Assembly (NCBI GenBank): GCA_027622665.1
Contig: JAQBYT010000004.1
Span: 96,001-160,000 of the forward strand
DNA from: Verrucomicrobiota bacterium
Lineage (GTDB): Bacteria; Verrucomicrobiota; Verrucomicrobiia; Opitutales; Seribacteraceae
Length of the DNA stretch: 64,000 bases
Direction: 5' to 3'
Made by a program: the position numbers and the translations under genes. Shown here in pieces: positions 12,558-36,600 of the stretch. Positions within the stretch are counted from its first letter, which is position 1; every line of letters starts with the position of its first letter. The notes beneath the pieces were generated by a model that was given only the letters and a program-made list of their open reading frames with translations, was not told where the DNA came from and did no database searches.

Positions 12558-13751
12558 TTACTTGCTCTTTAATTGCGAGATGAGAAAGGCGCTCGGGTTC
12601 TCGTGTTTTACCTTGGGTAGGCCGGGGTAGACGAGTTCGCAATCAACTCCTTGTGCCTTGCAATCCTCCTGCAGCTTCACCCCGAAGTTCGAGGTGTGAG
12701 TTGGGTCCTTCTGAGCTTTCCCCAATGCGGGCGGAGCGTTATAAGTCAGAAATACGGTAGGATCGTCGGGTTTTGGCCTATACTTGGGCCAGCCGCGAAA
12801 CAAGGTGAGTTCGCGCGGGGAAAGGTAAACCTGCTCGCCGGCGATAAGATTTGCCTCCGCCTCGATGATGCGCGACTTGCCCTCGACCGCCGCCCCGATG
12901 GTCCACAGGTGCTCCAAGTCCTGATGCCCGAAGCGGTCCGTCGAAATCTTCCCGACGTCCACGGAGATGGGCTTGCCACCGCTGTTAATAGCACGGACGG
13001 AGGCCCGGTATCGGTAGCGCCCGGCCAGTTTCGTGCGGTCGGTATGGACGCTCACATGCTTGTAGAGTTGGGCTCGAAAAACGAAGGCGTCGCCCTCCAA
13101 CCGGGACCAGGGAACGATGTCTTTGTGGTATACTTTTGGCTTCTTCTCCAGCCATTTCTTGCCCGTGAAGCGTTGCTTCTTTGTCCGCACGTCGACGACG
13201 CCCGGCGGCAAGGCATGGGACAAGGCAAGGGCCGCCGCCTCCTGGTACCGCACTAGATGGACGGCGGAAGTGCCGAGTCCTTCACTGACCTTGTCGAAGC
13301 CTGCGACCAAGTTGTCTTCAGGCAAGAGAGAATTAAGAACCACAGCGACGTCAAGCAGGTCGTGCAACGTATTTTCGTATTCCGTTCGGTTGAGACGACG
13401 AATGGGCACGCGGCCCTCACGCTGATTTTTCTGGGAAGCTTCATGAAGGGCGGCCTCAAGGAAGGTGAGAAAGTTTCCTGGGGCAGCGGGTTCCGGCTGT
13501 TTTTTCTTCTTAGGTGGCATCTCCTGAAGACGCACCCGGTCGAAGACCCGAATCCTCCTCCGTCTCGCATCCTCTGCGTTCAAGTCCGCCTACAAGGCCT
13601 CGAGATTCAGCCCGCCCTTGGCCACATCCGCATCGTGGCAATCAAAACAATGCATTTCAACAAAGGCCATTGGAACGCTCTCCTTGGCGGAAACGTTCAC
13701 CGAGAACCCGGCCAACGGAACGGGTAAACAAATGAATGAACCGAATTTCAT
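12558..13751 (-). pseudogene. Chimeric pseudogene: DUF1592-family N-terminus (with internal TAG) fused to an alpha/beta hydrolase C-terminus
   Basis: ATG 13751 overlaps the upstream stop. Reads MKFGSF...HCFDCHDAD...NLEAL*(TAG 13590-13592)ADLNAE...RRLNRTEYENTLHDLL, then switches near 12770 to DDPTVFLTY...DPTHTSNFGVKLQE, an esterase-type tail. Confidence 0.8.
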
Positions 13752-16072
13752 CGCCGCACGAATAAGTCCGATAGCACAAGGTGAAACATTAAAGTACGGA
13801 GCTTGTAGCTGTCCTTTTTGGCGGCAGCGGTGATGGCTTTGAGGTGGGTGCGGTCGTCCAGGGTCATCACGCGGCGTAGGGCGAAGGTGGCCAGTTGCTC
13901 GACGAAGGCTTCGGCGAACCGGTCGAGGTCCTGTACCAGCAGTTCCTTGAATTCATTCGGACCGGAATAAGCCCGACCATCGGGAAGTTTGCCGGATGCG
14001 TTTACGGGCGGGTTGGCTCCTTGCCCGCCCGGCATGTTTTCCTCCGTGCGCCATTGGCCGATGGCGTTGAAGTTGTCGAAGGCGAAGCCGAGCGGATCGA
14101 TCTTGGCGTGGCAGGATGCGCAGGTTGCGTGGGTGGCATGGGCCTCGAGCTGCTGCCGGATGGTGGCCTTGGGTTGGTCGGTGGGCGTGGGCTCAAGTGG
14201 TTCGACGTTGGGCGGCGGTGGCGGTGGCGTGCGTCCGAAAATGGCCTCGCTCACCCACACGCCGCGATGCACCGGTCTATGCCGTGTGCCGTCCGAGGTG
14301 AGCATGAGCACGGAGGCTTGGGTGAGCACTCCGCCACGATGATCTTGTGGCTGAAGCACCACTCGCTGGAAGCCGGCCTTTTGTAGCGCAGGCATTTGGT
14401 AATGCAGGGCGAGGCGGGAGTTCATAACGGTCCAGTCCGAGACGAGAAACTCGCGCAGAGACAGGTTGTTCTCGAACACCTCGTTGAAGAACTTGGTGGT
14501 CTCCAGGGCCATGCATTGCTCAAGCCACTTGTCGTAGTCCGGGTACAGGTCCATGTCCGGCGGGAACATGCCGACCTTGTGCAGTTGCAGCCACTGGCGC
14601 GGAAAGGCATCGGTGAAGCGGGCGGTCTTGGGATCGGTCAGCATGCGCGTCAACTGGGCGCCCAAGACTTCCGGACGGTGCAACTCCCCCTTGGAGGCCG
14701 CCTCGGTCAGTGCCTTGTCAGGCAGTGAACTCCACAGAAAATAGGAAAGGCGCGTGGCCAGTTCCCAGTCATTTACCTTATACCGGGGCTTGGCCGGGTC
14801 GCCTTCTACTATGTAATAAAAATTCTTCGAGGTCAGGATGCCCGTCAACGCCCCCAGGTAGGCGCTGCGGAAATTCTCGCCCGCATCCAGTTCTGCTTTG
14901 AGCAAATTCTGGTAGCGATCCAGTTCCACCGGGTTAATCGCCCGCCGCCAGGCACGGCTGGCAAAACGATCTAGGCAGGCCTTCGCCTCGGCGAGATCGC
15001 CTTCCTTGTGCGGATACAGCTCGGCCCGTTTTTGCTGCACGACGTCTGAAACAATCGGCCCCTCATATTCCACCTTGTCCACCAGGAGGAGAGGGAACAC
15101 AGGCCGTCCATCGTCGAGCAGCAGCTTGTAGCCGACGGGTTTCTGAGACCGCAAATTCGCCACTTTGCCTATCGCCTTGGGCGTGTGGCTGAGCGTGTGA
15201 CCGTCGTCCAGTTTTCCGGGGACCTCGTTGATGAGGCTGTAACCGCCCTTGTCCAAGGTCACTTGAAACTCAACCGTGATCGGCTTGCCTTCCGCGGCGG
15301 TTACGTCCCGTCCGGTCACGCCCTTTTTCAGGCTGTTGTTCCAAATCGAAAGGTGCGGCATGCGGCCCTTGAAGGAGGGTAGGGCGCTGAGGGTCACGCG
15401 CACCTTGTACAGTCCGGGTTCACGGGCGTTGAATCCTCCCTCGCGTCGGCCGGGAAACAGTAGCCAGCGCTGGCCATCAGGCGCGGTGCGTTCGCCTTGG
15501 TCCACCTTGGGCGTTTTCGTGGGGAAGGCCTCGGCCAGTACCTTTTCCGCGGCCTGAAGGTAGCGTGTCACATGCGAGGGCGACAGGGAGAGCATGGAGC
15601 CGATGCGGTCGAACCCGTGCCAGCGCGGATCCTCGTTCAAGGCCCCCGGCATGCGCGGGTCGAAATGTACACCGAGCAGGTCGTAAACGGAATGGGCGTA
15701 CTCGTCGCGGCTCAACCGGTAATGAGCCACTGGCCCGCGCTTGGCCATGCGTTCGGCTCTTCCTGATTCTATATTTCGGGAAATCCACTCGGCCACCTCG
15801 CCCAGTTCCACGGCGGTGGGTTGATGCTCATCTTCGGGCGGCATTTCGCCCGAGTTGATGCGAAAGAGCACCTCCACCCAAGTTTGCGCCGTGGCCTCCA
15901 CGCCAAATTCGAGCTTCAAGGTATCCAGCCGAAACTTCCCCTTCTGCTTCTCCGCATCGTGGCAGCGCAGGCAGTAGTTCTTGAAAAAAGGAAGAACCTC
16001 CTTCTCGAAGCCAGGGGCAGCCGAGTACACGGAAAAGCCTGCAAGGACCAAGATGGAAGGCAGGAATCTCAT
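13748..16072 (-). CDS. DUF1592-family protein (cytochrome c + DUF1587/1595/1592/1588/1585), copy C
   Basis: 774 aa with a signal peptide; [39 protein letters not shown] and CASCHAKIDPLGFAF. Confidence 0.92.
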   Translation of the reverse strand: MRFLPSILVLAGFSVYSAAPGFEKEVLPFFKNYCLRCHDAEKQKGKFRLDTLKLEFGVEATAQTWVEVLFRINSGEMPPEDEHQPTAVELGEVAEWISRNIESGRAERMAKRGPVAHYRLSRDEYAHSVYDLLGVHFDPRMPGALNEDPRWHGFDRIGSMLSLSPSHVTRYLQAAEKVLAEAFPTKTPKVDQGERTAPDGQRWLLFPGRREGGFNAREPGLYKVRVTLSALPSFKGRMPHLSIWNNSLKKGVTGRDVTAAEGKPITVEFQVTLDKGGYSLINEVPGKLDDGHTLSHTPKAIGKVANLRSQKPVGYKLLLDDGRPVFPLLLVDKVEYEGPIVSDVVQQKRAELYPHKEGDLAEAKACLDRFASRAWRRAINPVELDRYQNLLKAELDAGENFRSAYLGALTGILTSKNFYYIVEGDPAKPRYKVNDWELATRLSYFLWSSLPDKALTEAASKGELHRPEVLGAQLTRMLTDPKTARFTDAFPRQWLQLHKVGMFPPDMDLYPDYDKWLEQCMALETTKFFNEVFENNLSLREFLVSDWTVMNSRLALHYQMPALQKAGFQRVVLQPQDHRGGVLTQASVLMLTSDGTRHRPVHRGVWVSEAIFGRTPPPPPPNVEPLEPTPTDQPKATIRQQLEAHATHATCASCHAKIDPLGFAFDNFNAIGQWRTEENMPGGQGANPPVNASGKLPDGRAYSGPNEFKELLVQDLDRFAEAFVEQLATFALRRVMTLDDRTHLKAITAAAKKDSYKLRTLMFHLVLSDLFVRR

Positions 16073-16096: not shown

Positions 16097-17116
16097 CTAC
16101 TTGAAGACGATTTCAAGTTTTGGCCTTTCCTTTGCAAGCCGGTCAATGCTGTCCCGGTTTACATTCCTTAGGTTCCGGAGCGTTAGTTTGCGAAGGCTCT
16201 TGCTTTTCCCGAGGCTGGCGATCCCTGCCTCGGTGACCTTCGACGCCCCTCCGAGGAGAAACTCCTCCAGTTTCGGCATGGCGGCCACCAACATCAAATC
16301 CTGATCGCTGATGGAGGGGGCATGGCCGAGGTCCAGCTTGAGCAAGGTCTTGATCCTCGTCGCGTGGGCCAAGCCAACCGAGTCCGCTTGACGGTCAAGC
16401 AAGGACAGGTTCCTGAGCGGCAGCTTAGCCAGATAAGCTACAGATTTACCTGAACTTCCCTTGTCCGTACTGCCGATGCCAAGCGAATCAAGTTTCGTCA
16501 ATTTGGACAGATGCCGGGCTCCCTCATCCGTAAAATGGGAATGGGCAAACCAGAACCGGTCAGTGACGCCCACTTTGCAAATGGCTTCCAGTCCCTTGTC
16601 GTTCAAGGGGGTGAAGTGGAAGTTCACGCTCTTTAGGTTCTTTGCCTTGAGGTGCTTGAAACCTTCCCCGGCGCATTTGGATGAGGCAAGCCCGAGGGTA
16701 TGCAGGTTAGTCAAGGCTCCGAAATGCTTGAACCCCTCGTCCGTCACTGTCGTAAGCGTAAGGTTGAGGCTCTCCAGTTCGGTCAGATTGCCCAAGGATG
16801 CCATGCCCGCGTCCGTCACTTCGCAATTGGCCAAGCTCAGTGATTTCAAGGTTAAGACCTTGGTCAGCCACTTCTCGAGCCAGGCATCATTGACCATGTC
16901 GTTCTTTCCTCCCCGTCCCTTCAGCGGATTGTTGCCGTTGTAGAGGTCGATCAACAGCGGATTGCCGGCTTCAAACTCGATCTTGCCCCCGATCCTTTCA
17001 ATCTCGACCTTGAGAGGCTTCCATGTTTCTGCCGGATCCTGCAGTGCGTCGGCGGCAAAGGTAATTGTCCCTGCAAATATCCCAAGCAGGCTGATTCGGA
17101 TGAGGGAAAAGCTCAT
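16097..17116 (-). CDS. Exported leucine-rich-repeat protein
   Basis: ATG 17116 overlaps the upstream stop (ATGA), followed by signal peptide MSFSLIRISLLGIFAG. Repeats of LxxLxLxxxxVTDxGxxxL. Confidence 0.85.
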   Translation of the reverse strand: MSFSLIRISLLGIFAGTITFAADALQDPAETWKPLKVEIERIGGKIEFEAGNPLLIDLYNGNNPLKGRGGKNDMVNDAWLEKWLTKVLTLKSLSLANCEVTDAGMASLGNLTELESLNLTLTTVTDEGFKHFGALTNLHTLGLASSKCAGEGFKHLKAKNLKSVNFHFTPLNDKGLEAICKVGVTDRFWFAHSHFTDEGARHLSKLTKLDSLGIGSTDKGSSGKSVAYLAKLPLRNLSLLDRQADSVGLAHATRIKTLLKLDLGHAPSISDQDLMLVAAMPKLEEFLLGGASKVTEAGIASLGKSKSLRKLTLRNLRNVNRDSIDRLAKERPKLEIVFK

Positions 17117-18042
17117 GGTTTTTTGCGAAGAGAAATTGCCCCGGGGTGAGTCATTCGCACGCTGTACAAAGAAGTTCGCGCGGTGATGAATAGGGTCTTG
17201 AAATCCTTGCCGCCGAAGCAAACATTGGCCGGTCCTTCGGGAACCTCGATGGTTTCGAGTTTCTTGCCGTCGGCGTCGTAGACCTTAACCTGACCGTGGG
17301 TGAGATAGAGGTTGCCCTTTACGTCCACGGCCATGCCGTCGCTTCCCTCATCGATCTTGAATAGCTTCTTGCCCAGTTTCCTGTCTTTGGTCACCGCATA
17401 GCAAGTCACGCTAGGGGCGAGGCCGTGGAAGGCGGGGTCCGGGTGGCGCTTGTGCCCCCCCGTGTCGGCCACGTACAGCCTTGAGCCGTCCGGAGAAAAG
17501 ACAATGCCGTTGGGCATGGCCAAGTCCTTGATTAAGACCTCCACCTTGCCCGAATCCGGGTCGAGCTTGTATACCCAATGCCCCGGGATTTCATGCGGGC
17601 CGCTCAAACCCCAAGGGGGGTCCGTGAACCATAAGGTGCCATCCTTCCCCACGGCCACGTCGTTAGGGGAGTTGAAGCGCATGCCGTCGAACTTGTCGGC
17701 AAGGACTGTCGTGCTTCCGTCCTTTTCGATGCGTATGAGGTTCCGGGCCGCGTGCTGGCAGGATATGATGCGCCCCTGCAGGTCGAGGATGTTGCCGTTG
17801 GCCTGCTCGCTCTTTCGAAACTCCGATAAGCCTCCTTTTTTGCTCCACTGCATGAGCTTGCTGTTCGGGATGTCGGAAAAGACGACCTTGTTCTGTCCCG
17901 GCAACCACACGGGGCCTTCCGTGAACTTCATGTTCCCTGCCAGTTTCCTGACCTTGGCCCCGGGTTCGACCAGGGAGGCTCCTTGCAGGAAGATCACTTG
18001 AAATGAGAGAGCGATGCTCAAGGGAAGGAGGATTCGATTCAT
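17113..18042 (-). CDS. SMP-30/gluconolactonase family protein
   Basis: FTEGPVW, FSDIP, RFNSPND, PNGIVFSPDG, SDGMAVD and ANVCFGG motifs; signal peptide. Confidence 0.93.
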   Translation of the reverse strand: MNRILLPLSIALSFQVIFLQGASLVEPGAKVRKLAGNMKFTEGPVWLPGQNKVVFSDIPNSKLMQWSKKGGLSEFRKSEQANGNILDLQGRIISCQHAARNLIRIEKDGSTTVLADKFDGMRFNSPNDVAVGKDGTLWFTDPPWGLSGPHEIPGHWVYKLDPDSGKVEVLIKDLAMPNGIVFSPDGSRLYVADTGGHKRHPDPAFHGLAPSVTCYAVTKDRKLGKKLFKIDEGSDGMAVDVKGNLYLTHGQVKVYDADGKKLETIEVPEGPANVCFGGKDFKTLFITARTSLYSVRMTHPGAISLRKKP

Positions 18043-18062: not shown

Positions 18063-19238
18063 TCAGTAAATGGGCATGACCATTTTTTGGCCGTGCTTTT
18101 GTTCCTCGATGGAATGGATGCGTTCCTCGGGCGGCATGGAGACGAATTTCCAGCTGTCGGCCTTCACCCGCACGCAGGCCCCTGGCGAATAACCCTTGAG
18201 CAGTTCCTTGAACCGCAGGGTGATTTGCACGCCGCTGCTGCCAGTGACCGGGTGTTTGACCTCATTCCATTTCTCCAGCTTGCAGAACTTGCGGTCGCCG
18301 CGGTGGTACCATGTGCGCAGCGTCTTTTCCGCGCAGGCCACGGCGATGCGGTCATTGCGTTCGCGGCTGAGGTCTTCGATGATTTCCCGGTTCACATCGA
18401 AGAGCGTGATGACCAGTCGCCCGCCGCCGAAGTCGAAAATCTCCATCTCGTCAATCCAGCCGGGCATCCAGCGCTGGCGTTGAAACCTTAGGTGCTTCTG
18501 CCGTTGGCGTCCCGTGGATGCCTTCCATGAGGCTTCATCCAGCCACAGCTCGGTTACCGTAAATTCTCGTTCGGTATTGTAATGGCCGCCCTGGGCCCAG
18601 CCGAGGTTGAACCGTACTGTGGTCCCTGGCTTGATGTCCTTGAGTTCCACCCATCGTCTGTCCCGCCAGACGCGCGTAGTGGCAAGCAAGTCAAAGGTGT
18701 ACGGTGCCTTGATGCCCTGTTCCACCAGTTTCCCGGCAGGCTCGAGGTGTATCTTCTCCTTTTCGATTTCTACGCCCTTTACCTTCCACATTTGGCCATG
18801 CCGGGCGTAATGACTGAAGTCGTCGGTCAGGACCAAGGCGTGGTTTTCCAGCACGATGAGCTTTTGGTAACCCAAGGAGTCGGGGATTGGCGGGATGGTG
18901 TCCTCTTCTCCCTTCGGCGGTAGAAAAAACCAACCGTGTAGGTGCGTGCCCAGTGGTACGTCGCGCAGGGCGGCCCTGGCGCCATTGCGCCAAACGACGG
19001 CATAAGGAAGCAATGCGAAGTAATGCACCGGCCCGGCCCAGTAGCGGTCGCCACCGTCAATCCGTATCCCTCCACGGCGGTTTACGGCGTCCATGTAAAC
19101 CAGCTCGCCGGAAACATATTGGGCCTTTCCCATCGGGGCGAATTCAGCCGGGTCAGGGACGAACTTTTCGTCGGCGGCTAAGGAGGGATTCATCCCCATG
19201 AACGCGAACGCTAATAGCATGTAGAGGGCCCTCATCAC
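18063..19238 (-). CDS. Uncharacterised exported protein X, paralogue 1
   Basis: Signal peptide; [38 protein letters not shown] and GSSGVQI shared with four other ORFs in the window. Start is GTG 19238 or ATG 19235. Confidence 0.85.
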   Translation of the reverse strand: MMRALYMLLAFAFMGMNPSLAADEKFVPDPAEFAPMGKAQYVSGELVYMDAVNRRGGIRIDGGDRYWAGPVHYFALLPYAVVWRNGARAALRDVPLGTHLHGWFFLPPKGEEDTIPPIPDSLGYQKLIVLENHALVLTDDFSHYARHGQMWKVKGVEIEKEKIHLEPAGKLVEQGIKAPYTFDLLATTRVWRDRRWVELKDIKPGTTVRFNLGWAQGGHYNTEREFTVTELWLDEASWKASTGRQRQKHLRFQRQRWMPGWIDEMEIFDFGGGRLVITLFDVNREIIEDLSRERNDRIAVACAEKTLRTWYHRGDRKFCKLEKWNEVKHPVTGSSGVQITLRFKELLKGYSPGACVRVKADSWKFVSMPPEERIHSIEEQKHGQKMVMPIY

Positions 19239-19244: not shown

Positions 19245-20606
<1,362 letters not shown>

Positions 20607-20681: not shown

Positions 20682-21190
20682 TTACCGAGCCACCAAGTCG
20701 GACATGCCGGGTTCCCACTTCAAGGTAGCGACTCGCTTGAGATCTCCTTTCGCTGAAATCCGGTAGGCGGTTAGGCTGGCCCCGGTGGTGGCTGAGACCG
20801 GGAGGAATTTTCCATCGGGGGACAAGGTCAGACCTAGAAACTTGGCTTGCCCGTTATCAAGGACTTGGTAGCTTGCGATCGATCGAAATCTTGTTTGTGT
20901 CCGCGAAAACCCCCGAAGAGATGGTTGCGGTCAGGAGTGACTACCAGATCGGGGGAGCTCAGCCCGATCTTGGACATTCCAGGAGGGAGAACATTGATGT
21001 CCTGTTCGATCTTCAGTTGCCCGTTGGCCTCGCGGCGGTAAGTGGAGAGCCAAATGCCTTGCTCGTTGCTGAAGTAGACCATGGGGAGGGTGGGGTGGTA
21101 GGTCATGTGGCGGGGTCCGGTGCCTTGCGGAGCCTTAGCGTCCTTGGGTTCAAGCGGGGTGATGGCTCCCGTGCTGGTGCCCAACTGGTG
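20682..21190 (-). pseudogene. Lactonase (6-phosphogluconolactonase-type beta-propeller) pseudogene, 3' half
   Basis: GTGPRHMTYHPTLPMVYFSNEQ motif. A frameshift near 20880 continues IASYQVLDNGQAKFLGLTLSPDGKFL...MSDLVAR* (stop 20682-20684). The 5' part is missing here. Confidence 0.8.
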
Positions 21191-21484: not shown

Positions 21485-22549
21485 ATGCCAAAAATAAAGA
21501 AAGTTGTAACGGTTCCGAGTGCGGCGTATGGAGTGGAGTCTAAGTTTTTAAAGTTTTATCAAGCAATGCCAGAGCGTGTGCCACAGGTGGGGGATATTGT
21601 CTATGGTCGGGTTGTGAGTGTTGGTCAGCATTCGAACTTAGAAAATAAATCGGCCAGAATACATATGATTCATAACGGTTCTTTGGGCGTTTTTGTATTT
21701 GGTCACAGATATGCACCTGATTATTATGAAGGTCACGTTCCTGAAGAGCCAGTTGAAAAAGTGGATTTGTTGGCTAGATCAGGTGTTGTTGGAAATGTCA
21801 TTGTAAAAAACTCTTTGGTTAAAGACCCTACAAAAATAGAAGTATTAGGCTATGTCTGTACGGTTGATGGAAACGTTGTAAATACATTAGATTACAACTT
21901 AATTAATCCTCGATTGGTTACGAAAAAGAAATCAAGAGCTAAACTAGTTTTAGTTTGTGGGACGTCGATGAATTCAGGTAAAAGTATGGCTGCGGCAACC
22001 TGTTGCTGGGCACTAAGTAATATGGGCTACACGGTTAATGCATCCAAAGTTACGGGTACAGCTAGTCTGAAAGATATTTTATCCATGAATGATGCAGGAG
22101 CTGATAAATATTTAGATTTCACTTATTTAGGTTATCCCTCAACTTATAAATTAAGTGAAGATAAAATGTTAGATGTTTTTAACAAGATTGATTTAAAGTA
22201 TGCGAACGATCCAAAAAAATTCTGGGTGGTTGAGTTAGCGGATGGTATTTTACAAAGAGAAACGGCTATGTTACTTGCTCATGAAGATGTGAGGTCAAGA
22301 ATACATAAACTTATTTTTTGTTCGTATGATGCATTTGGTGCTATTGGGGGGTTGCAAGTATTGAAGGAAAAATTCGAATTGACACCAGATGCAATTTCGG
22401 GTGTCTGCTCTAGTTCGCCTCTTCATATGAAAGAGTTGTCCGAATTTTCGAATATTCCAATTTTTAATAGTGCGGATGCAAATCTTGATTTCATGAAAGA
22501 GATATTGCTTTCAAAGAAAAAGAGGTCCAAATTAGCATTCCAAAGTTAA
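21485..22549 (+). CDS. DUF1611-like P-loop protein
   Basis: 354 aa; FGHRYAPDYYEG, Walker-A-like CGTSMNSGKS, KVTGTAS, DFTYLGYPSTY and VELADGILQRET. Confidence 0.75.
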   Translation: MPKIKKVVTVPSAAYGVESKFLKFYQAMPERVPQVGDIVYGRVVSVGQHSNLENKSARIHMIHNGSLGVFVFGHRYAPDYYEGHVPEEPVEKVDLLARSGVVGNVIVKNSLVKDPTKIEVLGYVCTVDGNVVNTLDYNLINPRLVTKKKSRAKLVLVCGTSMNSGKSMAAATCCWALSNMGYTVNASKVTGTASLKDILSMNDAGADKYLDFTYLGYPSTYKLSEDKMLDVFNKIDLKYANDPKKFWVVELADGILQRETAMLLAHEDVRSRIHKLIFCSYDAFGAIGGLQVLKEKFELTPDAISGVCSSSPLHMKELSEFSNIPIFNSADANLDFMKEILLSKKKRSKLAFQS

Positions 22550-23391
22550 TTATACATGGTGGTGCAGGTCAGATGGAAGGGAGTTTGTTTTCTTTCAAGC
22601 AATATCATTTAGCACTTTCAAAAATCATCAAAAAAGCATATCCGATTCTTAGAGAAAAGGGTTCAAGAGAGGCGGTGATAAAAGCAATAAAGTTGTTGGA
22701 GGACAATCCGATTTTCAATGCAGGAAAAGGATCAAAATTGCAACGTGATGGGAGGGTTCGAATGTCCTCAGCCATTATGAGTTCAGATGATAGTCGTTTT
22801 TCGGGAGTCATTAATATTAGGAATGTAAAAAACCCAATTCAGATTGCAGATTTATTATCTAAAGAAAAACATACAGTTTTAGGAGGGCGTGAAGCTTGTG
22901 AATATGCACGGAAAAATAATGTGAAATACTTTGATCCAATTACAGAAGACCGTTTAAAAGAATTTAAAGAGAAGCGTTCGGGAGATACGGGAACTGTTGG
23001 GGCAGTTGCGTTAGATGACAAAGGCATCATTTGTGTAGGAACATCAACAGGTGGTGTTGGCTATGAGCTTCCAGGAAGAATTGGGGATAGTGCGACTGTT
23101 GCTGGAACCTATGTCTCGAATATGTGCGGTGTTTCTTGCACAGGAAGAGGTGAACATATTGTTAATTATGCCGTGGCTGCACGTGTTGTCAGTTATGTCG
23201 AATGTGGGAAGTCCTTAAAAGAGGCGGTAACAGAGATTATTGGTGATGGAAATGAAGATTCACGTTATTACGGGCTTATTAGTTTAGATTACCAAGGGAA
23301 TTTTGTTGTTGGAGAAACGGATATGGCGACAGTTTTGTATGCTTCATATGATGGGGAACTGTTTAATACATTTTTCAAAGATCAAAAATAA
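22531..23391 (+). CDS. iaaA: Isoaspartyl peptidase / plant-type L-asparaginase (Ntn hydrolase)
   Basis: LEDNPIFNAGKGS, GTVGAVALD (autoprocessing Thr), TSTGG, GRIGDS and CTGRGEHI. The conserved IPKLIIHGGAG lies upstream of the first ATG (22573), so I place the start at ATT 22531. Confidence 0.85.
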   Translation: MSIPKLIIHGGAGQMEGSLFSFKQYHLALSKIIKKAYPILREKGSREAVIKAIKLLEDNPIFNAGKGSKLQRDGRVRMSSAIMSSDDSRFSGVINIRNVKNPIQIADLLSKEKHTVLGGREACEYARKNNVKYFDPITEDRLKEFKEKRSGDTGTVGAVALDDKGIICVGTSTGGVGYELPGRIGDSATVAGTYVSNMCGVSCTGRGEHIVNYAVAARVVSYVECGKSLKEAVTEIIGDGNEDSRYYGLISLDYQGNFVVGETDMATVLYASYDGELFNTFFKDQK

Positions 23392-23570
23392 GCTAATATT
23401 GATTCCCGACAGGTGCCTATCCGAAGTGAAAAGGCGTGGACACTTTTAAAATATCAATTTACCGCCATTTTTGTTCAGGGCGGCCTGGATAACTATGGAT
23501 CATCATGGTACGAAGTAATAAACCTTTCTTATGGATGTGCTGCGTAAAAATATTTTTAAATAATTATTGA

Positions 23571-23823
23571 CGGAACTTTACCCGGTTCTCCCCCAGTCGC
23601 TGTGACGTAGAGTAGCGGTTTGGTGTGCGGTGATGACTCGCCCGGAAATGCCCAAGTCGATCTTTTTGGCGACCTTCAAGTCAAGGCCATCTTAGTTCGG
23701 GGCCGCCTTGACGATCCAGAGGGAGTTTGAATTGCTACAAGGCGAATAGACGTAAAAGGGTTTGCCGAAACAACAATGCGAGCATGCCAGTAAGAAACAG
23801 GTCAGAAAGAGGCATCGTGTCAT
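23571..23823 (-). pseudogene. Lactonase pseudogene, 5' half
   Basis: ATG 23823 gives MTRCLFLTCFLLACSHCCFGKPFYVYSP...APN*(TAA 23692-23694)DGLDLKVAKKIDLGISGRVITAH, then a frameshift to PLLYVTATGGEPGKVP, then AT-rich DNA. Confidence 0.7.
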
Positions 23824-26412: not shown

Positions 26413-28839
26413 TTAGCGTTTTTGGATGAATTCGGACAGGGCCACGGCCCGGACGATGTCCTTAAGTTTGTAGTTCGTTCGTTTCGCTTCTTCAACGATG
26501 GAATGAATGTCTTCTCGGTCATCGATGGTAAGGACCCGGCGAAGGGCATAGGTGCAAAGGTGCTCGACGAAGGCTTTGAGAAAGCGGTCACGGTCCTCGA
26601 TGAGCAGGTTCTTGAACTCGCTGGCATCGCTGAATGTTCTTCCGTCCGGCATCTTACCGCCTGGGTTGACCGGCGGGTTGGACCCCGTGCCCTTTTCTAC
26701 GCGCTCGTGGGTGCGCCATTGGCCGATGGCATCAAACTGGTCGAAGGCCAAGCCGAGGGGGTCGATGTTTTTGTGACAGGCAGCGCAGTTCGGGTTATGG
26801 GCGTGAGCTTCCAGCTTTTGTCTAATGGTCGCCTTGGGGCTGTCCGGCGGGTTCGGTTCGATCGGGTCGACGTTGGCGGGAGGTGGAGGCGGGGTTTTGC
26901 CGAAGATGGTCTCGCTGACCCAGACTCCACGGTGCACGGGGCGATGTCGCGTGCCATCGGAAGTAAGCCCAAGGATCGCCCCCGTGGTGAGAAGTCCGCC
27001 ACGGTTGTCTTCGGGGCGGAGGGCAACCCGCTGAAAGCCTCCCTTGTTCGGTTCGGGGAATCCATAGAAGTCGCACAGGCGAGGGTTGGCCATCGTCCAG
27101 TCGGATTGAAGAAAAGAGTCGATGGCTAGGTTTTGACGGAAGACTTCGTCAAAATATTGAACCACTTCCTCTCGCATGCTGGCCTCCAGCCAGACTTCGT
27201 AGTCCGGATAGAGTTTCAGATCGGGCGGAAACATCCCGAGCTTGTGGAGCTGAAGCCATTGGCGGGGAAAGTCCTCGATGAACCGCTCGATCTTGGAATC
27301 GGCGAGCATCCGGTCTACATGTGCCGCGAGGGCTTTTTTGTCACTAGTCAGTTTGCTCTCTTTTGCCGTATTAAAGAGCGATGGATCCGGCATGGAACTC
27401 CAGAGGAAATAGGAAAGGCGGGAGGCCAGTTCCCAGTCATTGAGTCTTTCGCGGGCTTTGACGTCCCCTTCCACGAGGTAGGTGAAGTTCCGTGAAGTCA
27501 ACATCCCGAGCAGGGCCACCTGATAAGCGTCGAAGACCTTTTCCCCAAGCTTTCGTTCTTCCTCATAGGAACGAAGATAGGGTTGCAGTTCGTTGATCTT
27601 CACTGGGCGGCGCCAAGCCCGTTCAGCGAAATTTTTCAACAGTTGAGCGACTTCCGTACTTGTTGCGTTGTTTTCAGGGAGCAATCCATTGCGGGTTGCC
27701 TTCTCGGACTCGCTTACGATTGGTCCTTCCCATTCGATCCAGTCCAGCAGGACGAAGGAGAAGATGCCGTCCCCCTCCTCGTCGAACATCTTGGGAGCGA
27801 TCGGGTTGAGCAGGGTGGTTTCGCTGCTGTGGGTGAATATGTAGCTGGTGCTGGAAAAGGCGTTTCGGTAATGAGCCCCCTTGCGCCGATCGATGATGTC
27901 GGATGCAATAAGGTTGAAGTCCAGGCTGGCGGGCATCTCCAAGAACACTTCGAATTTGAGGATTTCCGGCTTGTCTTCGGGGCCCATGACATCGAGTTCC
28001 AAAAGTCCCTCGTTGGCCGCCTCAAAAGTCCTCTTGCCAATTCTCAAGTGAGCGACTTGGCCACCTTTGGGACGAATGCCACTGACTTGCATTTTTGCCC
28101 GATAAAGCCCGCTGTGCTCGGGGCCGGTTCTTCCAAACCAATTATGCCTGAAGGCTTGTTGCAGTCGCCCTGGGAAAATCAAGGCACGCAAGGGCCTCTT
28201 GATACCGAATTGATCGAGGTACTTTTGTTGCTGCTTACCTCCATTATAGTGAATGTCCGCTGCCGTCATTCTGACTTTCTTGGCTTCGACCGGCTTGAGC
28301 GGAAAGGCCCGTGCTAGTACGGTTTCGGCGGCCTTGTAGTACCGTTCGACATGCGAGGGTGAAAGTGTAAGCAGGGAGCCGATGCGCTCGAAACCGTGCC
28401 AAAGCGGATCCGCGTTCAACTCACCTGGTTTCGTGGGATCGTAGCGGACGCCCAGGAGATCGTGGACCGTATTCCGGTATTCCTTGCGGCTGAGCCTATA
28501 GTGGGCGACCGGTGGTCGGGCGGCCATACGGGCGGCACGGCCTTCGCTAATTCTGGTGTCAAGCTGGCCAATGACCGATGCGATCTCGCTTTCGGTCGGT
28601 CGGGGTTCTTTTTTCGGGGGCATTTCCCCGGCATTGATCCGTTCCACGATCTCCGCCCAGAGATGTCCGTCCGCGCCCACCTTGAAATCCCGCGAAAGCT
28701 TGTCGATGCGCAAGTCACCTTTTTCCTTCTTTGGGCCGTGGCAACTGATGCAATGGTCGTTGAGGAAACCTTCAAATGATTTGTTGGCCGATAGCAAAGT
28801 AATCGGCAGTGAAATCATCAAAATTATGGCTCTAAGCAT
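26413..28839 (-). CDS. DUF1592-family protein, copy B
   Basis: Signal peptide from [38 protein letters not shown] and [12 protein letters not shown]. Confidence 0.92.
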
Positions 28840-28944: not shown

Positions 28945-30207
28945 TCAATACTTCGGAAAGATGGCAGGAGTAGGAAAGCGTTCTTCAGGCTTGTTTCCTC
29001 CGAGGTATTCCTCACGTGGTATTTGGACCTGTGGCCAGCTTCCTGGACAGATACGGACAACCCGTCCGGGACGGATGCCTTCGATGATCAGGTCGGTCTT
29101 GAATCGAATCCGGATACCGCTGCTGCCAAGCGGAGCATCGCCTTCGAGCCTTGTGACCTCAAGGATTGGGCCTCTGCAGGCCATATGGCCGGGGCCATAG
29201 GCCCCGTGGGTGTGTTTCAAGGTGTTCTCGACGGGATTCATCATTGCGGAAACGTCCTTCTTGAAGTCGGCGTAGAGGGAATCATCCATGCCGCCGAAGA
29301 GGGTGGCGGTAACGGTGGCAGTGCCAAATTTACCATACTCTATGGCATCAACAAAGGCAGGCATCCAGCGGCTCCGGATGAACGCCTTGTGCGTCTCGGT
29401 CTGGTTGCGGGCGGCCCGTTGAATCGAAACGTCGTCGAGCCAGACGTCGGAGACGTGAAAGCGGGTAAAGACACCGTCCGGCGTGGGCCTCCAGGTGATG
29501 CCGAGCAGGACCGCCTGGTCTTTGAGGGATTTCTTTCCGCTCTCAGGCCAAGTGCCTTCGTGGACGAGGTCAGCCACTTGAAGCTTCTCCAGGCCTCGCC
29601 ATATGCGGGTGGCGGCATCGAAGGTCATCGTTTCCTCTTCAGCCTTGGTTCCGCTGTTCTTGGATTCTCGTCGGGCTATGATTTTGCCGGCGCCGTCTTT
29701 GATATTCACCTCCTTCAGCTCCCATACTTTGCCCTCTCGCAGGCAGTGGCTTGCTTCGTCTTCAAGAAGAATCACGTGGTTTTCGGCCGGGGCGATGCCT
29801 TTGCCACTATAGCCGGCGGTCTTGTTGCGGTTGTTGATTGGCAACACGGGTACGGCGGAGAGCTTGGGATCAGGAGGGAGAAAAGCCCGTACGTGCAGCA
29901 CGGTGCCCAATGGAATGTCGCGGAGTTGGGCAGGAGCATTGTGGTAGCGAATGATCCCGTAGGGTAACATGGCGAAGGGGTGCGGCTTGTTTCGAAAGTA
30001 CATGCCTTCACCTTGTATGCGGATGCTGCCGCGACGGTTGGCATGGTCCACGAAAACAAGTTCTCCACGGTAGGAATGTGCCTTTTCAAGGGGAGGGAAT
30101 TTTCCCGTCTCCGGCCGGAACGGTTGTTCCTCGGGGCGTGCATTGGAGACGAGTATGAACAGGACTAGGTGTAGTGTAGAGACCCATCGGGCAAAGTTTA
30201 GTTTCAT
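28945..30207 (-). CDS. Uncharacterised exported protein X, paralogue 3
   Basis: 420 aa; [26 protein letters not shown] and RWMPAFVD; ends FPTPAIFPKY. Confidence 0.88.
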   Translation of the reverse strand: MKLNFARWVSTLHLVLFILVSNARPEEQPFRPETGKFPPLEKAHSYRGELVFVDHANRRGSIRIQGEGMYFRNKPHPFAMLPYGIIRYHNAPAQLRDIPLGTVLHVRAFLPPDPKLSAVPVLPINNRNKTAGYSGKGIAPAENHVILLEDEASHCLREGKVWELKEVNIKDGAGKIIARRESKNSGTKAEEETMTFDAATRIWRGLEKLQVADLVHEGTWPESGKKSLKDQAVLLGITWRPTPDGVFTRFHVSDVWLDDVSIQRAARNQTETHKAFIRSRWMPAFVDAIEYGKFGTATVTATLFGGMDDSLYADFKKDVSAMMNPVENTLKHTHGAYGPGHMACRGPILEVTRLEGDAPLGSSGIRIRFKTDLIIEGIRPGRVVRICPGSWPQVQIPREEYLGGNKPEERFPTPAIFPKY

Positions 30208-30226: not shown

Positions 30227-31498
30227 CTAGTATTTCGGAAAGATGTCCGGGGTTGGGAAACGTTTTTCGATTCCGTCCCTGGTGTGGTGGATGTATTCTT
30301 CCCGGGGTACTTCCAGTAGCGGCCAACTTTCGGGACGGATTCTTATTACTTTTCCGGGTCTAAAGCCTTCCGTTACGAGGTTGGTCTCGAGACTTACCTC
30401 AATACCACTGCTTCCGGGGGATCCTCTTTTATCGGTTTTTGAAACCTCTATTAAAATCCCCCTGCTTGCCATCTGGGCAGTGCCTGCAGTCCCTCCCGCC
30501 CAATGTTTCAAGGTGTTTTCCGAGGAGGCAAGCATGGCCTTTCCCCCTTTTTTGAAATCGGTGTATAAGGAGTCATCCATGCCACCGAATAGGGTAACGG
30601 TAACTTTGGCCCGTCCAAACTTGCCGTATTCGACCTTGTCCACCCAGCCTGGCATCCAACGGCTCCTGATAAATGCCTTGTGGGTTTCGTTTTGGATTTG
30701 AGCGGCCCGTTCCATGGCAAGTTCATCCAGCCAGATGTCGCTGACGTGAAAGCGTTTGAAGACACCGCCCGGGGTGGGTTTCCAGGTAATGCCAAGAAAG
30801 ACCGTTTGGTCATTGAGATCTTTTTCCCCGTTTTTTGGCCAGGTTTTTTCGTTCATGAGATCGGTGATACATAGTCGTTCCCGTCCCCGCCAAAAACGGG
30901 TGGTTGCGTCGACGGAAAAGGTTTCCTCATGAATCTGCCCTATGCCTGCTTTGGGCTCCCTGCGTGCGACGATCATGCCGGCTTTTTCCTTCAGCTCCAC
31001 TTCCTGAAGTTTCCAGACCAATCCGAGGCGTTTGCAATGGCTTGGCTCGTCTTCAAGTATGTAAACGTAGTTCTCAGCCGGTGCCACGCCTGTTCCTGCA
31101 TTGCCGTATTTTTTTAGCCGGGTGTCGGTGGGTAAGACCGGTACGGCTGATATCTTGGGGTCGGGTGGAAGAAAGGCTTTTACGTGCATCACCGTACCCA
31201 AAGGGATATCCCGAAGATCGGCCGGAGCTCCCTGGTAACGGACCAAACCGTAGGGGAGTAGGGCAAAGGGGGACGGGTCGGTAAATCGAAACTTACCGTT
31301 CCCGTCGATGCGTATACTGCCGCGACGGTTGGCATGATCCACAAAAGTGAGCTCGCCTTGGTAGGAATGAGCCTTTTCCATAGGTGGAAACTTTCCAGCC
31401 TCGGGTCGGAAGGTATCTTGTTCGGCAGGCGCCTTGCAAACGATGGAGAAAATGCCGAGGTGTAGTGTGGCAATCCATCGGATGGGGAATCGTTTCAT
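30227..31498 (-). CDS. Uncharacterised exported protein X, paralogue 4
   Basis: 423 aa; FRPEAGKFPP, GELTFVDHANRRGSIR and RWMPGWVD; ends [10 protein letters not shown]. Confidence 0.88.
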   Translation of the reverse strand: MKRFPIRWIATLHLGIFSIVCKAPAEQDTFRPEAGKFPPMEKAHSYQGELTFVDHANRRGSIRIDGNGKFRFTDPSPFALLPYGLVRYQGAPADLRDIPLGTVMHVKAFLPPDPKISAVPVLPTDTRLKKYGNAGTGVAPAENYVYILEDEPSHCKRLGLVWKLQEVELKEKAGMIVARREPKAGIGQIHEETFSVDATTRFWRGRERLCITDLMNEKTWPKNGEKDLNDQTVFLGITWKPTPGGVFKRFHVSDIWLDELAMERAAQIQNETHKAFIRSRWMPGWVDKVEYGKFGRAKVTVTLFGGMDDSLYTDFKKGGKAMLASSENTLKHWAGGTAGTAQMASRGILIEVSKTDKRGSPGSSGIEVSLETNLVTEGFRPGKVIRIRPESWPLLEVPREEYIHHTRDGIEKRFPTPDIFPKY

Positions 31499-31518: not shown

Positions 31519-32799
31519 TCAGTATTTTGGAAAGATATCCGGAGTCGGGAAGCGGTTCTCCGGGCTATTGTTGAAGAGGTATTCCTCCCTGGGGATTTGA
31601 GACTTCGGCCAACTGTCCGGACGGATGCGAACTACCCGTCCGGGACGAATGGCTTCGATAATCTGGTCGGTCTTGAAATCGACTTGAATGCCACTGCTGC
31701 CCAATGGAATGTTGCTTTCCTGTTTGGTGACTTGAACAATCTTTCCACCCGATGCCATGTGACCAGGGCCGTAGTGGCTAGCGGTGTGTTTCAATGTATT
31801 TTCCGCACCGTTTATCTGTCCGCCAATATCTTTTTTGAAATCGTCGTACAGTGCCTGATCCATCCCTCCAAAAAGGGTGAGAGTCGCTGTGGCCTGACCA
31901 AACTTTCCGTACTTTACCTCATTCACATAGGCGGGCATCCAGCGGGTACGGATGAAACTGTTGTTCTTCTGGGTCAGGAAATAGGCAGCGTGTTCAATGG
32001 ACTGATCATCCAGCCAAATATCCGAGACATGAAAACTGGTAAAGGCACCGCTTAGTCCATCCCCAGGTGCGGGTTTCCAGGTTATACCCAAAAGGACAGG
32101 TTGGTCACTTAGATCCTTCTTTCCATTTTCAGGCCATGCTTTCTCCTCGATCAGATCCGAGATGCGGATTGATTCGCGTCCCCGCCAAATACGGGTGGCG
32201 GCATCGAAGGTCATGGTTTTGGGCTCAACTTTCGTTTTCTCACCGTCTATGGGTTGTCGACTGGCCACGATCGTGCCAACGAGATTGTTTAGCTTCACTT
32301 CCTGGAGTTTCCACACCAAACCGTTTCGTCTGCAATGACTGGGTTCATCTTCGAGTAGAAGAATATGATTTTCAGATGGGAAAATACCGGTTCCCCGGTA
32401 GTGTCCGGCATCCTTATCTTTATTGTTGGGAGGGAGTACGGGAACGGAAGAGGTTTTGGGGTCGGGTGGTAAAAACCCATGGGCATGCATCACCGTGCCA
32501 AGCGGGACGTCGCGAAGATCGGCGGGAGCATCGTGGTAACGGACCATGCCGTAGGGAAGCAGGGCGAAAGGGTGGGGGTCATTCCGGTAAAATTTCCCCG
32601 TTCCCTCCACGCGGATGCTTCCGCGCCGGTTGGGGTGGTCCACGAAGATAAGTTCTCCCCGATAGGCATGGGCTTTTTCAATCGGTGGAAATTTCCCCGT
32701 TTCGGGGCGGAACGGTTCACTTTTCTCTACGACCGATGCAAAGACGGAGGTCTCGAAAACAAAGGCAAAAGCAAGCCAAACCAGATATTTTCGGATCAT
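31519..32799 (-). CDS. Uncharacterised exported protein X, paralogue 5
   Basis: ATG 32799 overlaps the DUF1552 stop (ATGA); signal peptide [29 protein letters not shown]; ends [10 protein letters not shown]. Confidence 0.88.
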
Positions 32800-34148
32800 A
32801 TTGCGATGACTTGGTTGCTGTCGCCAAATTGTTCCGTCTCCACTCCCATCTTTTGGGCCATGAGAAGAAGCAGGTTGCTCATGTGGGCATCGGAATTGAC
32901 CGGGCGGCTGCAAAGTCGATAGTGGTCACCCGGTTTGTCGAGGGTGTAACCGTCGAAATGACCCTGATTGAAATCAAGGTGACTTCCGTGCTTCAAGCCC
33001 AAGTCTGAACCACCGGCAAAAACGAGGGGCAGGTTGGCATTTCCGTGACTGTGGCCGTAGGACATACCGCTGCCGAAAAGAGACATGGTTGACCCGAGCA
33101 GAGACTTTCCGCTTAGGTCCTTGGTTTCTTCCAAACGGGAAAGGAAGTAGCTGTATTGTTCGATGGCGAAAGTATCGTAGTTCGTCAGCTTTTCCATATA
33201 GCCCTCATCGCCCCCGTGGTGACTAAGTTGGTGGCGGGACTCGGTGATGCCGATCTCGGGTATGGCGAAGGCATCTCCTTCTCCTCCCAGGCTGAAGGTT
33301 GCGACCCGAGTGACGTCGGTTTGAAAGGCGAGAACCATGAGGTCATAAACGGTACGGAAGTAATCCCCCGCCTGGGCTTTGGTGACTTTACGGTTGGTGC
33401 GCTTACGGTCGGAATCGGAAATTTTGGGTAGAGGGGTGTCGAGCCAGTCGTCCGCCCGACGCGTACGGATTTCCGCTTCGCGCACCGAGGTGAGGTACTG
33501 ATCCATGCGACCCTTGTCCGCCTTCCCCATTTTTTTCTCCAATCGACGAACCTCTTCCAGGTTGTCATCCAATACGCTTGCCTTGCGACGAAGTCTTTTG
33601 CGCTGGGCATCAATCCCCCCTTTGGGTTCCTCGAAAAGGGAAGCGAAGATTTGGCTGCACTGCCGCATGGCGGGCAGTTGAACACCGTCCGCAGTCCAGG
33701 CCAGAGAACCCTGAGTCAGGGCAACTTCAAGGGAGGGGTGGCGGGTGTGTTGGCCGGTTATTTCGGCCATTTTTTGGTCCACCGAGATGGTGTTACGGTG
33801 AGCGGCCCCGATTTTCCCTCCTGTCAAAAAGACGTTAATGCAGTTGTGGTGATGCCCGAGGCTGCCGGGATGATGAAGGCCGCTGACCGGCGTGATGGCG
33901 TTACGATGTTTCTCCAAAGGTTTGAGTGATTGGGAGAATTCGTACTCTTTGCCCGGCTCAGTGATCTGGTAATTGAGGGAATGGACACCGTTGGCGAGGT
34001 AGATAAAAGCGCTCCGTTTCGGTGTGGAAACCTTTTCGGCCGCTTTGAGCGGAGTCATGCATTCGAGCATGGGCAGTGCGATACAGGTACCCATGGCCCG
34101 GAGGGCATGGCGGCGATTGATCAACCAGGATTGTGATAAGTAATTCAT
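32796..34148 (-). CDS. DUF1552-family protein (Tat signal), copy A
   Basis: [10 protein letters not shown] leader; [26 protein letters not shown] and HSHGNANLP. Confidence 0.92.
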
Positions 34149-34176: not shown

Positions 34177-36600
34177 CTAGCGTTTGCGGAGGAGGTCGGA
34201 GACGGCCACTGCACGGATCATATCTTTAATCTGATAATTCTTTTTCTTTGCCTCTTCTTCGATGACTGAGATGTCATCCTTGTCGTCAACGGTGAGAACG
34301 CGTCGCAGGGCATAGGTGCAAAGGTGCTCGATAAAAGCACGGGCAAAGCGGTCCCGATCATCGAACAGCAATCTTTTGAACTCCACGGAACCCTTGAAGG
34401 TTCGTCCGTCCGGTAAGGTTCCCGAGGCATCGACCGGGGGATTCTCTCCTTTCCCGGTGGGTACGAGTTCGCGGGTTCTCCACTGTCCGATGGCATCATA
34501 CTGGTCGAAGGCCAAGCCCAGCGGATCGATCGTCTTGTGGCAGGCGGCGCAATTGGGATCTTTGGTGTGGGCTTCGATGCGTTGGCGGATGGTGATCTTA
34601 TCTCCTTGCGGAGGGACGGGTTCGATCGGGTCGACGTTGGCCGGTGGGGCGGGCGGGGTTTTGTTGAAGATGGTTTCGCTTAGCCATACCCCGCGGTGTA
34701 CCGGGCGGTGGCGCGTACCGTCCGAGGTCAGTCCGAGAACTCCTCCCATGGTGAGCAGTCCCCCTCGGTTGTCTTCGGGCTTGAGCGAAACGCGCTGGAA
34801 ATCGCCCTTCTTCGGTTCGGGCAATCCGTAGAAGTCGCTGAGGCGGGCGTTGGCCATCGTCCAATCCGAATCAAGCAGGGATTCAATGGGAAGGTTATTG
34901 CTTAGTAATTCCCGGAAAAACTCAACCGGTTCGTTGCGCATACTGGTCTCGAGCCAGTCATCGTAGGTGGGGTAGAGCTTTTTATCCGGTGGAAACATTC
35001 CCACCTTGTGCAGTTGCAACCATTGACGCGAAAAGTCGTCGATGAAGCGGTTGATCCGATCGTCCGTCATCATCCGGTCTACCTGCTTATTCAGTTCACC
35101 GTCTTTCAGGTTACCGGCCTTGGCGGCAGCGAAGAGACCATCGTCGGGCATGGAACTCCAGAGGAAGTACGAGAGCCGGGAGGCAAGCTCCCAGTCGTCC
35201 AAGTGTTTCCGGGCCTTCGGATCGCCTTCCACCAGGTAGATGAAGTTTCGGGAAGTCAGCACCCTGAGCATGGCCGTACGGAAGGCATCGACCGCTTTTT
35301 CTCCCGCATCAAGATCAGCTTGGTAGGATTTTAGGTAGCCCGACAGCTCGTCTTTCCCTACCTGCCTTCGCCAGGCCCGCTCGGCGAAGCGTTGCAGGTG
35401 ATCGGTCACCGTTTGGATCGTGGCATTATCATCCGGGACAATACCTTCCCTTTTGGCTTTTTCCTCCTTCGATACGAGCGGACCTTCCCACTCGACCCAA
35501 TCGAGGATTACCGTGGAGAAGATGCCGTTTCCCTTGTCGTCGAACATCTGCGGGGCGTTGGGGTTGAGGAGAAGGGTCTCGCTGCTGTGCGTGAAGAGAT
35601 AAGCGTTTCCGCTGGAGAGCGCGTTGCGGAAAGCCGCGCCCCCTCTCCGGTCGATCACGTCCGTGGCGACCACGGCAAAGTGCAACCCCGTTGGCATTTC
35701 CAAAAACACCTCCATCTCATAGACCTGCGGACTGTCTTCGGGTGCCGTGACGTCGAATTCGATCAGGCCCTCCACGGTCTCCTCACTAGTCTTCTTGCCG
35801 ATACTCAGGTGGGCCGGTTGGCCGCCGGGCGGACGGATGCCGCTGGCTTGGAGGCGAAGTTTGTAGAGCCCGCTGTGTTCCGGGCCCGTCTTGCCGAACC
35901 AATTGGAGGATAGAGCCGGTTGAACTCGGCCTGGGAAATGGAGGTAGCGCAACGGCCGCTTGATACCGAGCCGGGCGAGGGCCTCCTTTTGTTTCTCCCC
36001 GCCCCCATACCTCAAATCCGCTGCCGTCTTGCGTACTTTTCGCGCCTCGGCGGCCTTGGTGGGAAAAGCCCGCTCGAGCACGATCTCCGCGGCTTGGTAG
36101 TAGCGGTTGACGTGCGAAGGCGAGAGCGAGAGTTGCGAACCGATTCGCTCATAGCCGTGCCACAGGGTGTCCTCATTCAGTTCGCCCGGCTTGGTCGGGT
36201 CGTAGCGGACTCCCAGGAGGTCATAGACTGTATTCTGATATTCCTTCCGGCTCAGGCGATAATGCGCCACTGCCGGGCGCGCCGCCATCCGCGCCGCCCG
36301 ACCTTCTCGAATGCGCTGATCCAGTTCGGCGATGACCTTGCCGATTGCATCGGCGGTTGGCCGCGGTTCATCCTCGGGGGGCATTTCACCGGCATTGATC
36401 TTCTCGACCACTTCGGCCCAGAGTTGCCCATCCACGCCGGACTTGAAATCACGCGACAATTGATCCAGCCGCAAGTCGCCCTTCGACTTCTTGGGACCAT
36501 GACAGCTCACGCAGTGCTTGGTGAGAAAACCCTCAAAGGGTTCGGCGGCTGAACCGGTGGACGCCACGGCAAGCAAAAGGATGGAGGAAAAACGTATCAT
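34177..36600 (-). CDS. DUF1592-family protein, copy A
   Basis: 807 aa with a signal peptide; [31 protein letters not shown] and [12 protein letters not shown]. Confidence 0.92.

Follow-up and report, generated by a model that had tools for sequence, protein, structure and literature searches.

Closest described systems and the locus

The pairing of PSCyt3 cytochromes with DUF1552 proteins was described by He et al. 2017 (PMC5615132); in the accessible part of that paper its function is said to be unknown, and some such cytochromes carry carbohydrate- and protein-binding domains. In the available portions of this paper and of Kamneva et al. 2012 (PMC3542564), periplasmic, carbohydrate-linked redox roles are proposed, and other members hold their binding domains in cis; the latter also covers parallel DUF1501 modules. 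As far as its accessible text goes, a further report (PMC2754498) merely lists a DUF1552 gene as stress-regulated. No publication treating DUF1552 together with DUF1592 was found in the literature searched, most subscription papers lying outside its scope. Here, we describe three DUF1592/DUF1552 operons, A, B and C, which carry genes of a third family, X, at positions 13748..36600 of a 64,000-nucleotide stretch (the window) of a Verrucomicrobiota bacterium (assembly GCA_027622665.1, contig JAQBYT010000004.1, positions 96,001 to 160,000). No description of X was found in the literature searched; subscription papers or supplements may hold one.

All genes of the three operons lie on the minus strand, transcribed in the order DUF1592(A)-DUF1552(A)-X5-X4-X3, DUF1592(B)-DUF1552(B)-X2 and DUF1552(C)-X1-SMP-30-LRR-DUF1592(C), where LRR denotes a leucine-rich repeat protein. 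The gene identities, order and junctions given by the first-pass annotation were all confirmed: DUF1552(A)/X5 is an ATGA overlap, DUF1552(B)/X2 a GTGA overlap, and DUF1552(C)/X1 a 6-nt gap. DUF1592(A) and DUF1592(B) adjoin the DUF1552 genes of their operons and DUF1592(C) lies three genes from DUF1552(C); the order DUF1552-X-DUF1592 of operon C recurs in L038, L176, L178, L179, L181 and L182. Pfam calls on both kinds of gene are well above cut-off, with 277-290 bits against a cut-off of 30 for HXXSHH (PF07586) in the three DUF1552 proteins, and with PSCyt1, PSD3, PSD5, PSD4, PSCyt3 and PSD2 all recognized in the three DUF1592 genes. Each of the latter has two CxxCH motifs, as had been annotated, and both motifs together with Met73 are kept in at least 95% of 102 DUF1592 sequences.

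The features of group III PSCyt proteins, namely PSCyt3 with PSD4 and usually with PSD2, PSD3 and PSD5, CxxCH and a DUF1552 neighbour, were all found in the window's DUF1592 genes. The locus shares with the group III PSCyt3/PSD-DUF1552 pair, as described in the accessible text of PMC5615132, the PSCyt1, PSD3, PSD5, PSD4, PSCyt3, PSD2 string, the DUF1552 neighbour and the many copies per genome; unlike that pair, it represents one clade with its own DUF1552 insertion, an obligate-looking X in one to five copies, and optional LRR and lactonase genes, features that the accessible text of that paper does not mention. The modules of DUF1501 with PSCyt1/PSCyt2/PSD1, including four-gene clusters (PMC3542564, available portions), likewise join a twin-arginine protein to a multi-domain cytochrome, and some of their clades have extra genes to which a part in assembly or substrate recognition is ascribed, a further likeness to the X system. 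However, the families there are DUF1501 and DUF1549/1553, and the extra genes are not X. The locus is a robust variant of a known and unexplained DUF1592/DUF1552 system, set apart by the unnamed third family, its fixed subtypes and the optional LRR and lactonase partners.

Linkage, fold and descent of the X family

The link between X and DUF1552 is tight in both directions. The GTDB loci examined were the best 80 of 492 confirmed, all close relatives of X3 (L063 and L064 being near duplicates), and 71 of them have DUF1552 on the upstream side of the X array, no more than 1.6 kb away, the other nine running out at a contig edge; none was arranged otherwise. Since these loci are close X3 relatives, 40 further places were taken from evenly drawn genome samples, distant X lineages among them, where DUF1552 stood upstream in 33 of 36 core-X loci, two of the 33 being cut or split; at L211, core X lies at the contig end. 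A FastTree analysis of 168 DUF1552 proteins gave one clade of 116 (support 0.993, stem 0.41) that holds 114 of the 117 X-followed sequences, and its remaining two members have an X gene upstream. Because this sample had been gathered through X, the converse was tested with a profile of the DUF1552 clade (E 1e-110; five or six candidates scored per genome). Clade members were detected in 12 of 301 genomes of the window's class, all 12 X-positive; among 301 Planctomycetota genomes there were 18 scorers, 16 of which carry X. Of the two X-negative scorers, G531 is cut by a contig end and G444 is an intermediate 376-bit match. In the combined converse sample, X is carried by 28 of 30 clade-scoring genomes.

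The window's genome holds 43 DUF1552-like open reading frames (ORFs; fragments included), four of them in the X-linked clade and each of these four with X behind it; the adjacency is not a matter of chance, because the four X-followed ORFs are exactly the four clade members. Automated scoring of 107 trios gave 71 in which the stop codon of DUF1552 is overlapped by a start codon. Complex prediction for DUF1552(B) with X2 from paired 80-row alignments returned a score of 0.00, which is evidence neither way. The dedicated third component that had been proposed for one DUF1592/DUF1552 subfamily is therefore borne out, as a gene family, by the locus linkage, the clade of 116 and the converse counts.

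A small gene of ~135 residues recurs in ten of the 80 loci, including L053:5967-6374, where it sits between DUF1592 and DUF1552; we take its product to resemble the four-helix-bundle intervening-sequence proteins.

X is a genuine family without a name. The five proteins of the window are homologous (31-62% identical to X5) and have Sec-type N-termini by eye; a lipoprotein anchor was rejected, no lipobox being visible. They have no significant match in Pfam, NCBIfam or PDB sequences, in keeping with the earlier reading of the system as undescribed. A profile built from them gathered 575 representatives at 50% clustering, and with X3 as query the 8,000 scored candidates included at least 3,545 relatives at E 1e-10. 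The 120 X3 matches listed are all unnamed or 'hypothetical' and carry no Pfam domain; an 85% identical X3 relative is assigned to 'Verrucomicrobia bacterium TMED56', and the sequencing runs in which the stretch occurs come from seawater or other marine material, so that the genome probably belongs to a marine verrucomicrobium. The distribution is patchy: 18 of 301 Planctomycetota genomes carry X, as do 14 of 301 in the window's class and nine of 40 relatives.

The X3 model, built from 98 sequences, reached a predicted local distance difference test (pLDDT) value of 93.6 and a predicted template modelling score of 0.91, and shows three beta domains and one long helix; the fold is predicted to comprise two oligonucleotide/oligosaccharide-binding (OB)-like barrels and one reductase-type barrel. 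Domain 2 looks like a weak repeat of domain 1 (hhalign P 0.0012), and the two domains, searched within the whole model, have OB matches at Z 6.0-6.4 (4gs3, 8txr). For domain 3, barrels of helicase 1B, reductases and lumazine proteins all score within Z 7-9.5. With the X model as query, Foldseek yielded no clear match, and domain 3 found nothing among the named clusters of the Atlas. Among 24 diverse members the conserved residues are mostly structural, with Gly, Pro, aromatic residues, Arg and Asp prevailing; a Cys/His cluster was sought among them and not found, a single His reaching 83% and no Cys appearing.

X5, X4 and X3 represent three fixed subtypes that fall in three different clades, each common to both phyla. 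Identity between them is 66-69%, with fixed differences at six sites, including F/Y/R71, Y/A337 and H/Q341. Among the 58 arrays that contain more than one typed copy (L081 and L214 being one locus, and kin not independent) no subtype is repeated, and the X3 type is present in all 58. A deep X lineage with two X units per polypeptide and ~620-770 residues was observed in P0005, P0063, P0113, L184-L189 and L197.

Co-descent was assessed on 102 trios, seven with short or missing partners having been dropped and four operons of the window's own genome added. Patristic distances across the three gene trees correlate at r 0.96-0.97, which agrees with the tree congruence that the first-pass annotation had set as a check, and of the 35 strong splits in the X tree 32 conflict with neither partner tree, which rules out free exchange of X between operon lineages and contradicts the idea of an 'exchangeable' subunit. 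The X proteins evolve ~2.2 times faster than DUF1552; this rate and the subtype differences fixed at few residues fit the specificity role that had been suggested for X. The three operons of the window were also said to have been amplified by duplication, and as a local event this does not hold: identity among A, B and C is 59-69% for DUF1552, 48-67% for DUF1592 and 32-49% for X, whereas their DUF1552 proteins reach 92%, 81% and 69% to operons in other genomes, the nearest relatives of operon B including Planctomycetota sample genomes. As each is closer to operons of other genomes than to the other two, local triplication is ruled out, and by these sequence comparisons A, B and C are old operon lineages that diverged separately and are gathered in the window.

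Proposed function and competing explanations

DUF1552 had no PDB match by sequence. The DUF1552(B) model (pLDDT 85.7) aligns with ENPP7 (5udy) at Z 15.4 (root-mean-square deviation (rmsd) 3.8, 237 aligned), all 50 rows of structure matches belong to the alkaline-phosphatase superfamily at Z 12-15, and Foldseek gives probability 1.0 to arylsulfatase A. By its model, the protein has the fold of the alkaline phosphatase/sulfatase superfamily, matched across its full length, but at 8-13% identity, with a His-rich centre and no sulfatase motif. The formylglycine sulfatase motif is C/S-x-P-x-R; in DUF1552 this CxPxR motif is absent, and His-His-Asn-Cys precedes a conserved LTG, with neither Pro nor Arg in register. 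We take the alkaline-phosphatase nucleophile and Asp ligands to be replaced, by sequence register, by His, Asn, Pro/Ala and Gly, with His at the nucleophile position. Invariant in the X-linked clade are His101, 306, 310, 311, 368, 387 and 390, Glu290 and Arg305, and Cys103 is kept at 97%. The clade also has a 22-residue insertion at 395-416, which most of the 52 proteins outside the clade lack.

We hypothesize, tentatively and at somewhat less than even confidence, that the three related operons, each with a two-haem DUF1592, a His-rich phosphatase-fold DUF1552 and one to three X proteins, encode a periplasmic haem-linked oxidoreductase in which X is a non-catalytic ligand-binding helper. The basis is the gene linkage in both directions, the co-descent, the predicted folds and the fixed X subtypes. 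DUF1552 would be exported folded by the twin-arginine translocation (Tat) system with a His-ligated metal centre and would oxidize a small soluble substrate, from which electrons would pass to the two c-type haems of DUF1592. X may bind or present the substrate, a different one for each subtype; the recurring lactonases may open a lactone product, which would suggest sugars or sugar acids as substrate, and the optional LRR protein could be a further binding or scaffold partner. A wider proposal, that these operons define a new class of modular periplasmic oxidoreductase of the Planctomycetes-Verrucomicrobia-Chlamydiae (PVC) bacteria, with a phosphatase-fold His-metal redox enzyme, a di-haem partner, a fixed in-trans X repertoire that chooses the sugars or sugar acids oxidized and lactonases that finish the reaction, is in our judgement unlikely.

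Several findings weigh against the oxidoreductase hypothesis. Locus L184 has core X with DUF1592 only and L194 has neither partner nearby, and of seven distant relatives of X, named X', four lie beside X or the pair and three away from them. In the window's genome, 39 of the 43 DUF1552-like ORFs lack X, so that most DUF1552 operons do without it. In 7,998 long candidates, a weak test, X was never fused to DUF1552 or DUF1592, and the sole fusion is with a Peptidase_S15/PepX_C hydrolase. Lactonases accompany fewer than one in ten loci, and related loci are not independent. The Tat consensus is a twin-arginine motif with Phe and a hydrophobic stretch; the DUF1552 clade has RR in 99%, with Ala (71%), Val (11%) or Phe (8%) at the consensus-Phe position. 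No demonstrated activity for any DUF1552 or DUF1592 member was found in the literature searched.

The alternative that fares best, although we hold it to be rather unlikely, is that X is co-regulated and co-inherited with the pair but works alone, e.g., as a free periplasmic binding protein or as the next pathway step, and is no subunit of the enzyme. X has its own signal peptide, one to five copies accompany a single DUF1552, L194 has X without the pair, and X-type domains are fused to unrelated enzymes, i.e., an SMP-30 lactonase (L199) and a Peptidase_S15 hydrolase (P0151). Nevertheless, the near one-to-one co-occurrence, the stop/start overlaps, the deep tree congruence and the clade-specific DUF1552 insertion bind X to its partners more tightly than the optional LRR and lactonase neighbours are bound. 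Both fusions were also recorded for their architecture: in L199:207-2927 (minus strand) the X-type domains stand behind the SMP-30 domain, and in P0151 a full X stands behind the Peptidase_S15/PepX_C hydrolase, on one contig.

We regard as distinctly unlikely a role of X as a maturation or assembly factor that delivers metal or haem to this DUF1552/DUF1592 subfamily or helps it fold. CusF and CcmE are OB-fold periplasmic chaperones, the partner is His-rich, and X domains 1-2, which look like weak repeats, give sub-threshold matches to the small OB-type barrels of DUF5666/CusF: four of 98 members match weakly (best E 0.0047, DUF5666), a CusF match of X relatives reaches E 0.0009, also below threshold, and the nearest named Atlas clusters are DUF5666/CusF at 0.77, the others being unnamed. 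X differs from these families in falling below every cut-off, with none of the five window proteins matching at the Pfam cut-off, and in being joined to a third barrel, predicted to be of the reductase type. CusF copper chaperones carry conserved His/Met copper ligands, whereas domains 1-2 of X have no conserved His/Met/Cys ligand set, no His or Met reaching 80% conservation there in the 24 diverse members. Three maintained subtypes per enzyme pair fit a chaperone poorly, and Tat substrates usually receive their cofactor before export.

That X is a flavin-binding electron-transfer subunit, which would make the system a flavo-cytochrome, appears improbable. Domain 3 matches the flavin adenine dinucleotide (FAD) domain of methane monooxygenase reductase (Z 8.1, rmsd 3.3, 93 aligned) and lumazine protein (Z 8.1, rmsd 2.1, 78 aligned), and its L-[RK]-[TS]-[YW] motif, followed by Asn/Asp, recalls the RxY(S/T) motif of flavin-binding barrels of the ferredoxin-NADP reductase (FNR) and riboflavin-synthase type. 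However, the best matches of domain 3 are to barrels without flavin, those of helicase 1B (Z 9.5), scores of about Z 8 are commonplace, none of 98 members matches a FAD-binding Pfam family, and the motif, which is not kept in all subtypes, lies in the loop that precedes the strand, is interrupted by an insertion in X3-X5 and has Ala for Tyr in the X4 subtype. Equally improbable is a DUF1552 hydrolase (phosphatase, sulfatase or similar) with the haem protein and X sensory or structural and no substrate oxidized, for which the superfamily fold and the sulfatases often found as neighbours of X loci speak, and against which stand the missing CxPxR, the presumed loss of the usual nucleophile and Asp ligands, and the constant pairing with a di-haem protein.

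Neighbouring genes and significance

The operons of the window are flanked or interrupted by further genes (Table 1). A secreted LRR family stands beside or inside the operon at 18 distinct loci of 138, and a 7-bladed lactonase occurs at nine of 138, either in the operon or no more than two genes away, with a tenth at 4 kb. In L115:1850-4237, between DUF1592 and DUF1552, a lactonase is fused to the X-associated LRR family; L112:1553-3349 apparently holds the same fusion with a frame break. With the LRR protein of L076 as query, the window's LRR protein was the only match in its genome (E 5e-17), and the three shortest distances between DUF1552 and a lactonase in this genome are those of X operons C, D and B. 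Behind X2, at 20685-23817, lies a broken lactonase gene, 47-62% identical to the L211 lactonase and split by a ~2.3-kb low-GC insert on the opposite strand; neither this gene nor the two-gene insert between B and C had been mentioned by the first-pass annotation. The LRR kinship, the broken lactonase and the short distances indicate that the SMP-30 and LRR genes of operon C are likely recurring optional partners, though absent from most loci, and their standing as random passengers was rejected on the recurrence of LRR and lactonase genes at X operons.

Table 1. Features of the X operons and of the interrupting insert, in order of transcription of the operons (window coordinates)
Feature	Position	Strand	Remarks
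DUF1592(A)	34177..36600	-	807 aa; PSCyt1-PSD3-middle domain-PSD5-PSD4-PSCyt3-PSD2; two CxxCH; signal peptide
DUF1552(A)	32796..34148	-	450 aa; member of X-linked clade; twin-arginine N-terminus
X5	31519..32799	-	426 aa; subtype 'X5'; start overlaps DUF1552(A) stop
X4	30227..31498	-	423 aa; subtype 'X4'
X3	28945..30207	-	420 aa; commonest subtype; model pLDDT 93.6, three beta domains
DUF1592(B)	26413..28839	-	808 aa counted from the ATG opening the signal peptide
DUF1552(B)	25051..26406	-	451 aa; model with alkaline-phosphatase-superfamily fold
X2	23831..25054	-	407 aa; start overlaps DUF1552(B) stop
5' remnant of broken 7-bladed lactonase gene, adjoining X2	23559..23817	-	~49% identical to L211 lactonase
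Low-GC insert (GC 0.37-0.39) inside lactonase gene; outside the module	21485..23391	+	
P-loop protein in insert (weak DUF1611/CbiA)	21485..22549	+	
Asparaginase-2-family gene in insert	22573..23391	+	
3' remnants of broken lactonase gene	20685..21190	-	pieces 62% and 47% identical to L211 lactonase
DUF1552(C)	19245..20606	-	453 aa
X1	18063..19238	-	391 aa; of a divergent lineage; 6 nt after DUF1552(C)
SMP-30/gluconolactonase-family protein	17113..18042	-	signal peptide
Secreted LRR protein	16097..17116	-	kin of LRR family recurring beside X operons
DUF1592(C)	13748..16072	-	774 aa; closes operon DUF1552-X-(SMP-30, LRR)-DUF1592

A fourth X operon lies elsewhere in the same genome (L001:6358-12657, G000:C42) in the order distant X'-DUF1592-DUF1552-X, the pair being flanked by X' and X; next to the operon come a beta-lactamase-fold gene and a lactonase, behind X. 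After DUF1592(C), at 12558-13751 on the minus strand, there is a broken DUF1592 gene of another subfamily with a haem motif, an in-frame stop near 13590, PSD3 and no C-terminal domains. Also on the minus strand, a DUF1501 gene at 52245-53722 appears as two fragments (Pfam positions 1-168 and 198-390), which points to a frameshift, and a peroxidase-family gene of catalase-peroxidase size occupies 46202-48535 within a lower-GC stretch. Every gene is covered in part by contigs from seawater and marine RNA libraries, some of which span gene junctions; neither transcription nor its strand or level can be read from such contigs, and carry-over of DNA is possible.

DUF1592/DUF1552 pairs occur by the dozens per genome in Verrucomicrobia and Planctomycetes without a known function, and X gives a handle on this large family. 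The X-linked clade is unusually conserved across both phyla, and cultured carriers exist in Limnoglobus roseus PX52, Brevifollis gellanilyticus NBRC 108608 and Neorhodopirellula pilleata Pla100. Together with a soluble, well-modelled X whose subtypes differ at six sites, and with the lactonase neighbours, these cultures would make a ligand screen and a haem-reduction assay feasible for the whole family.

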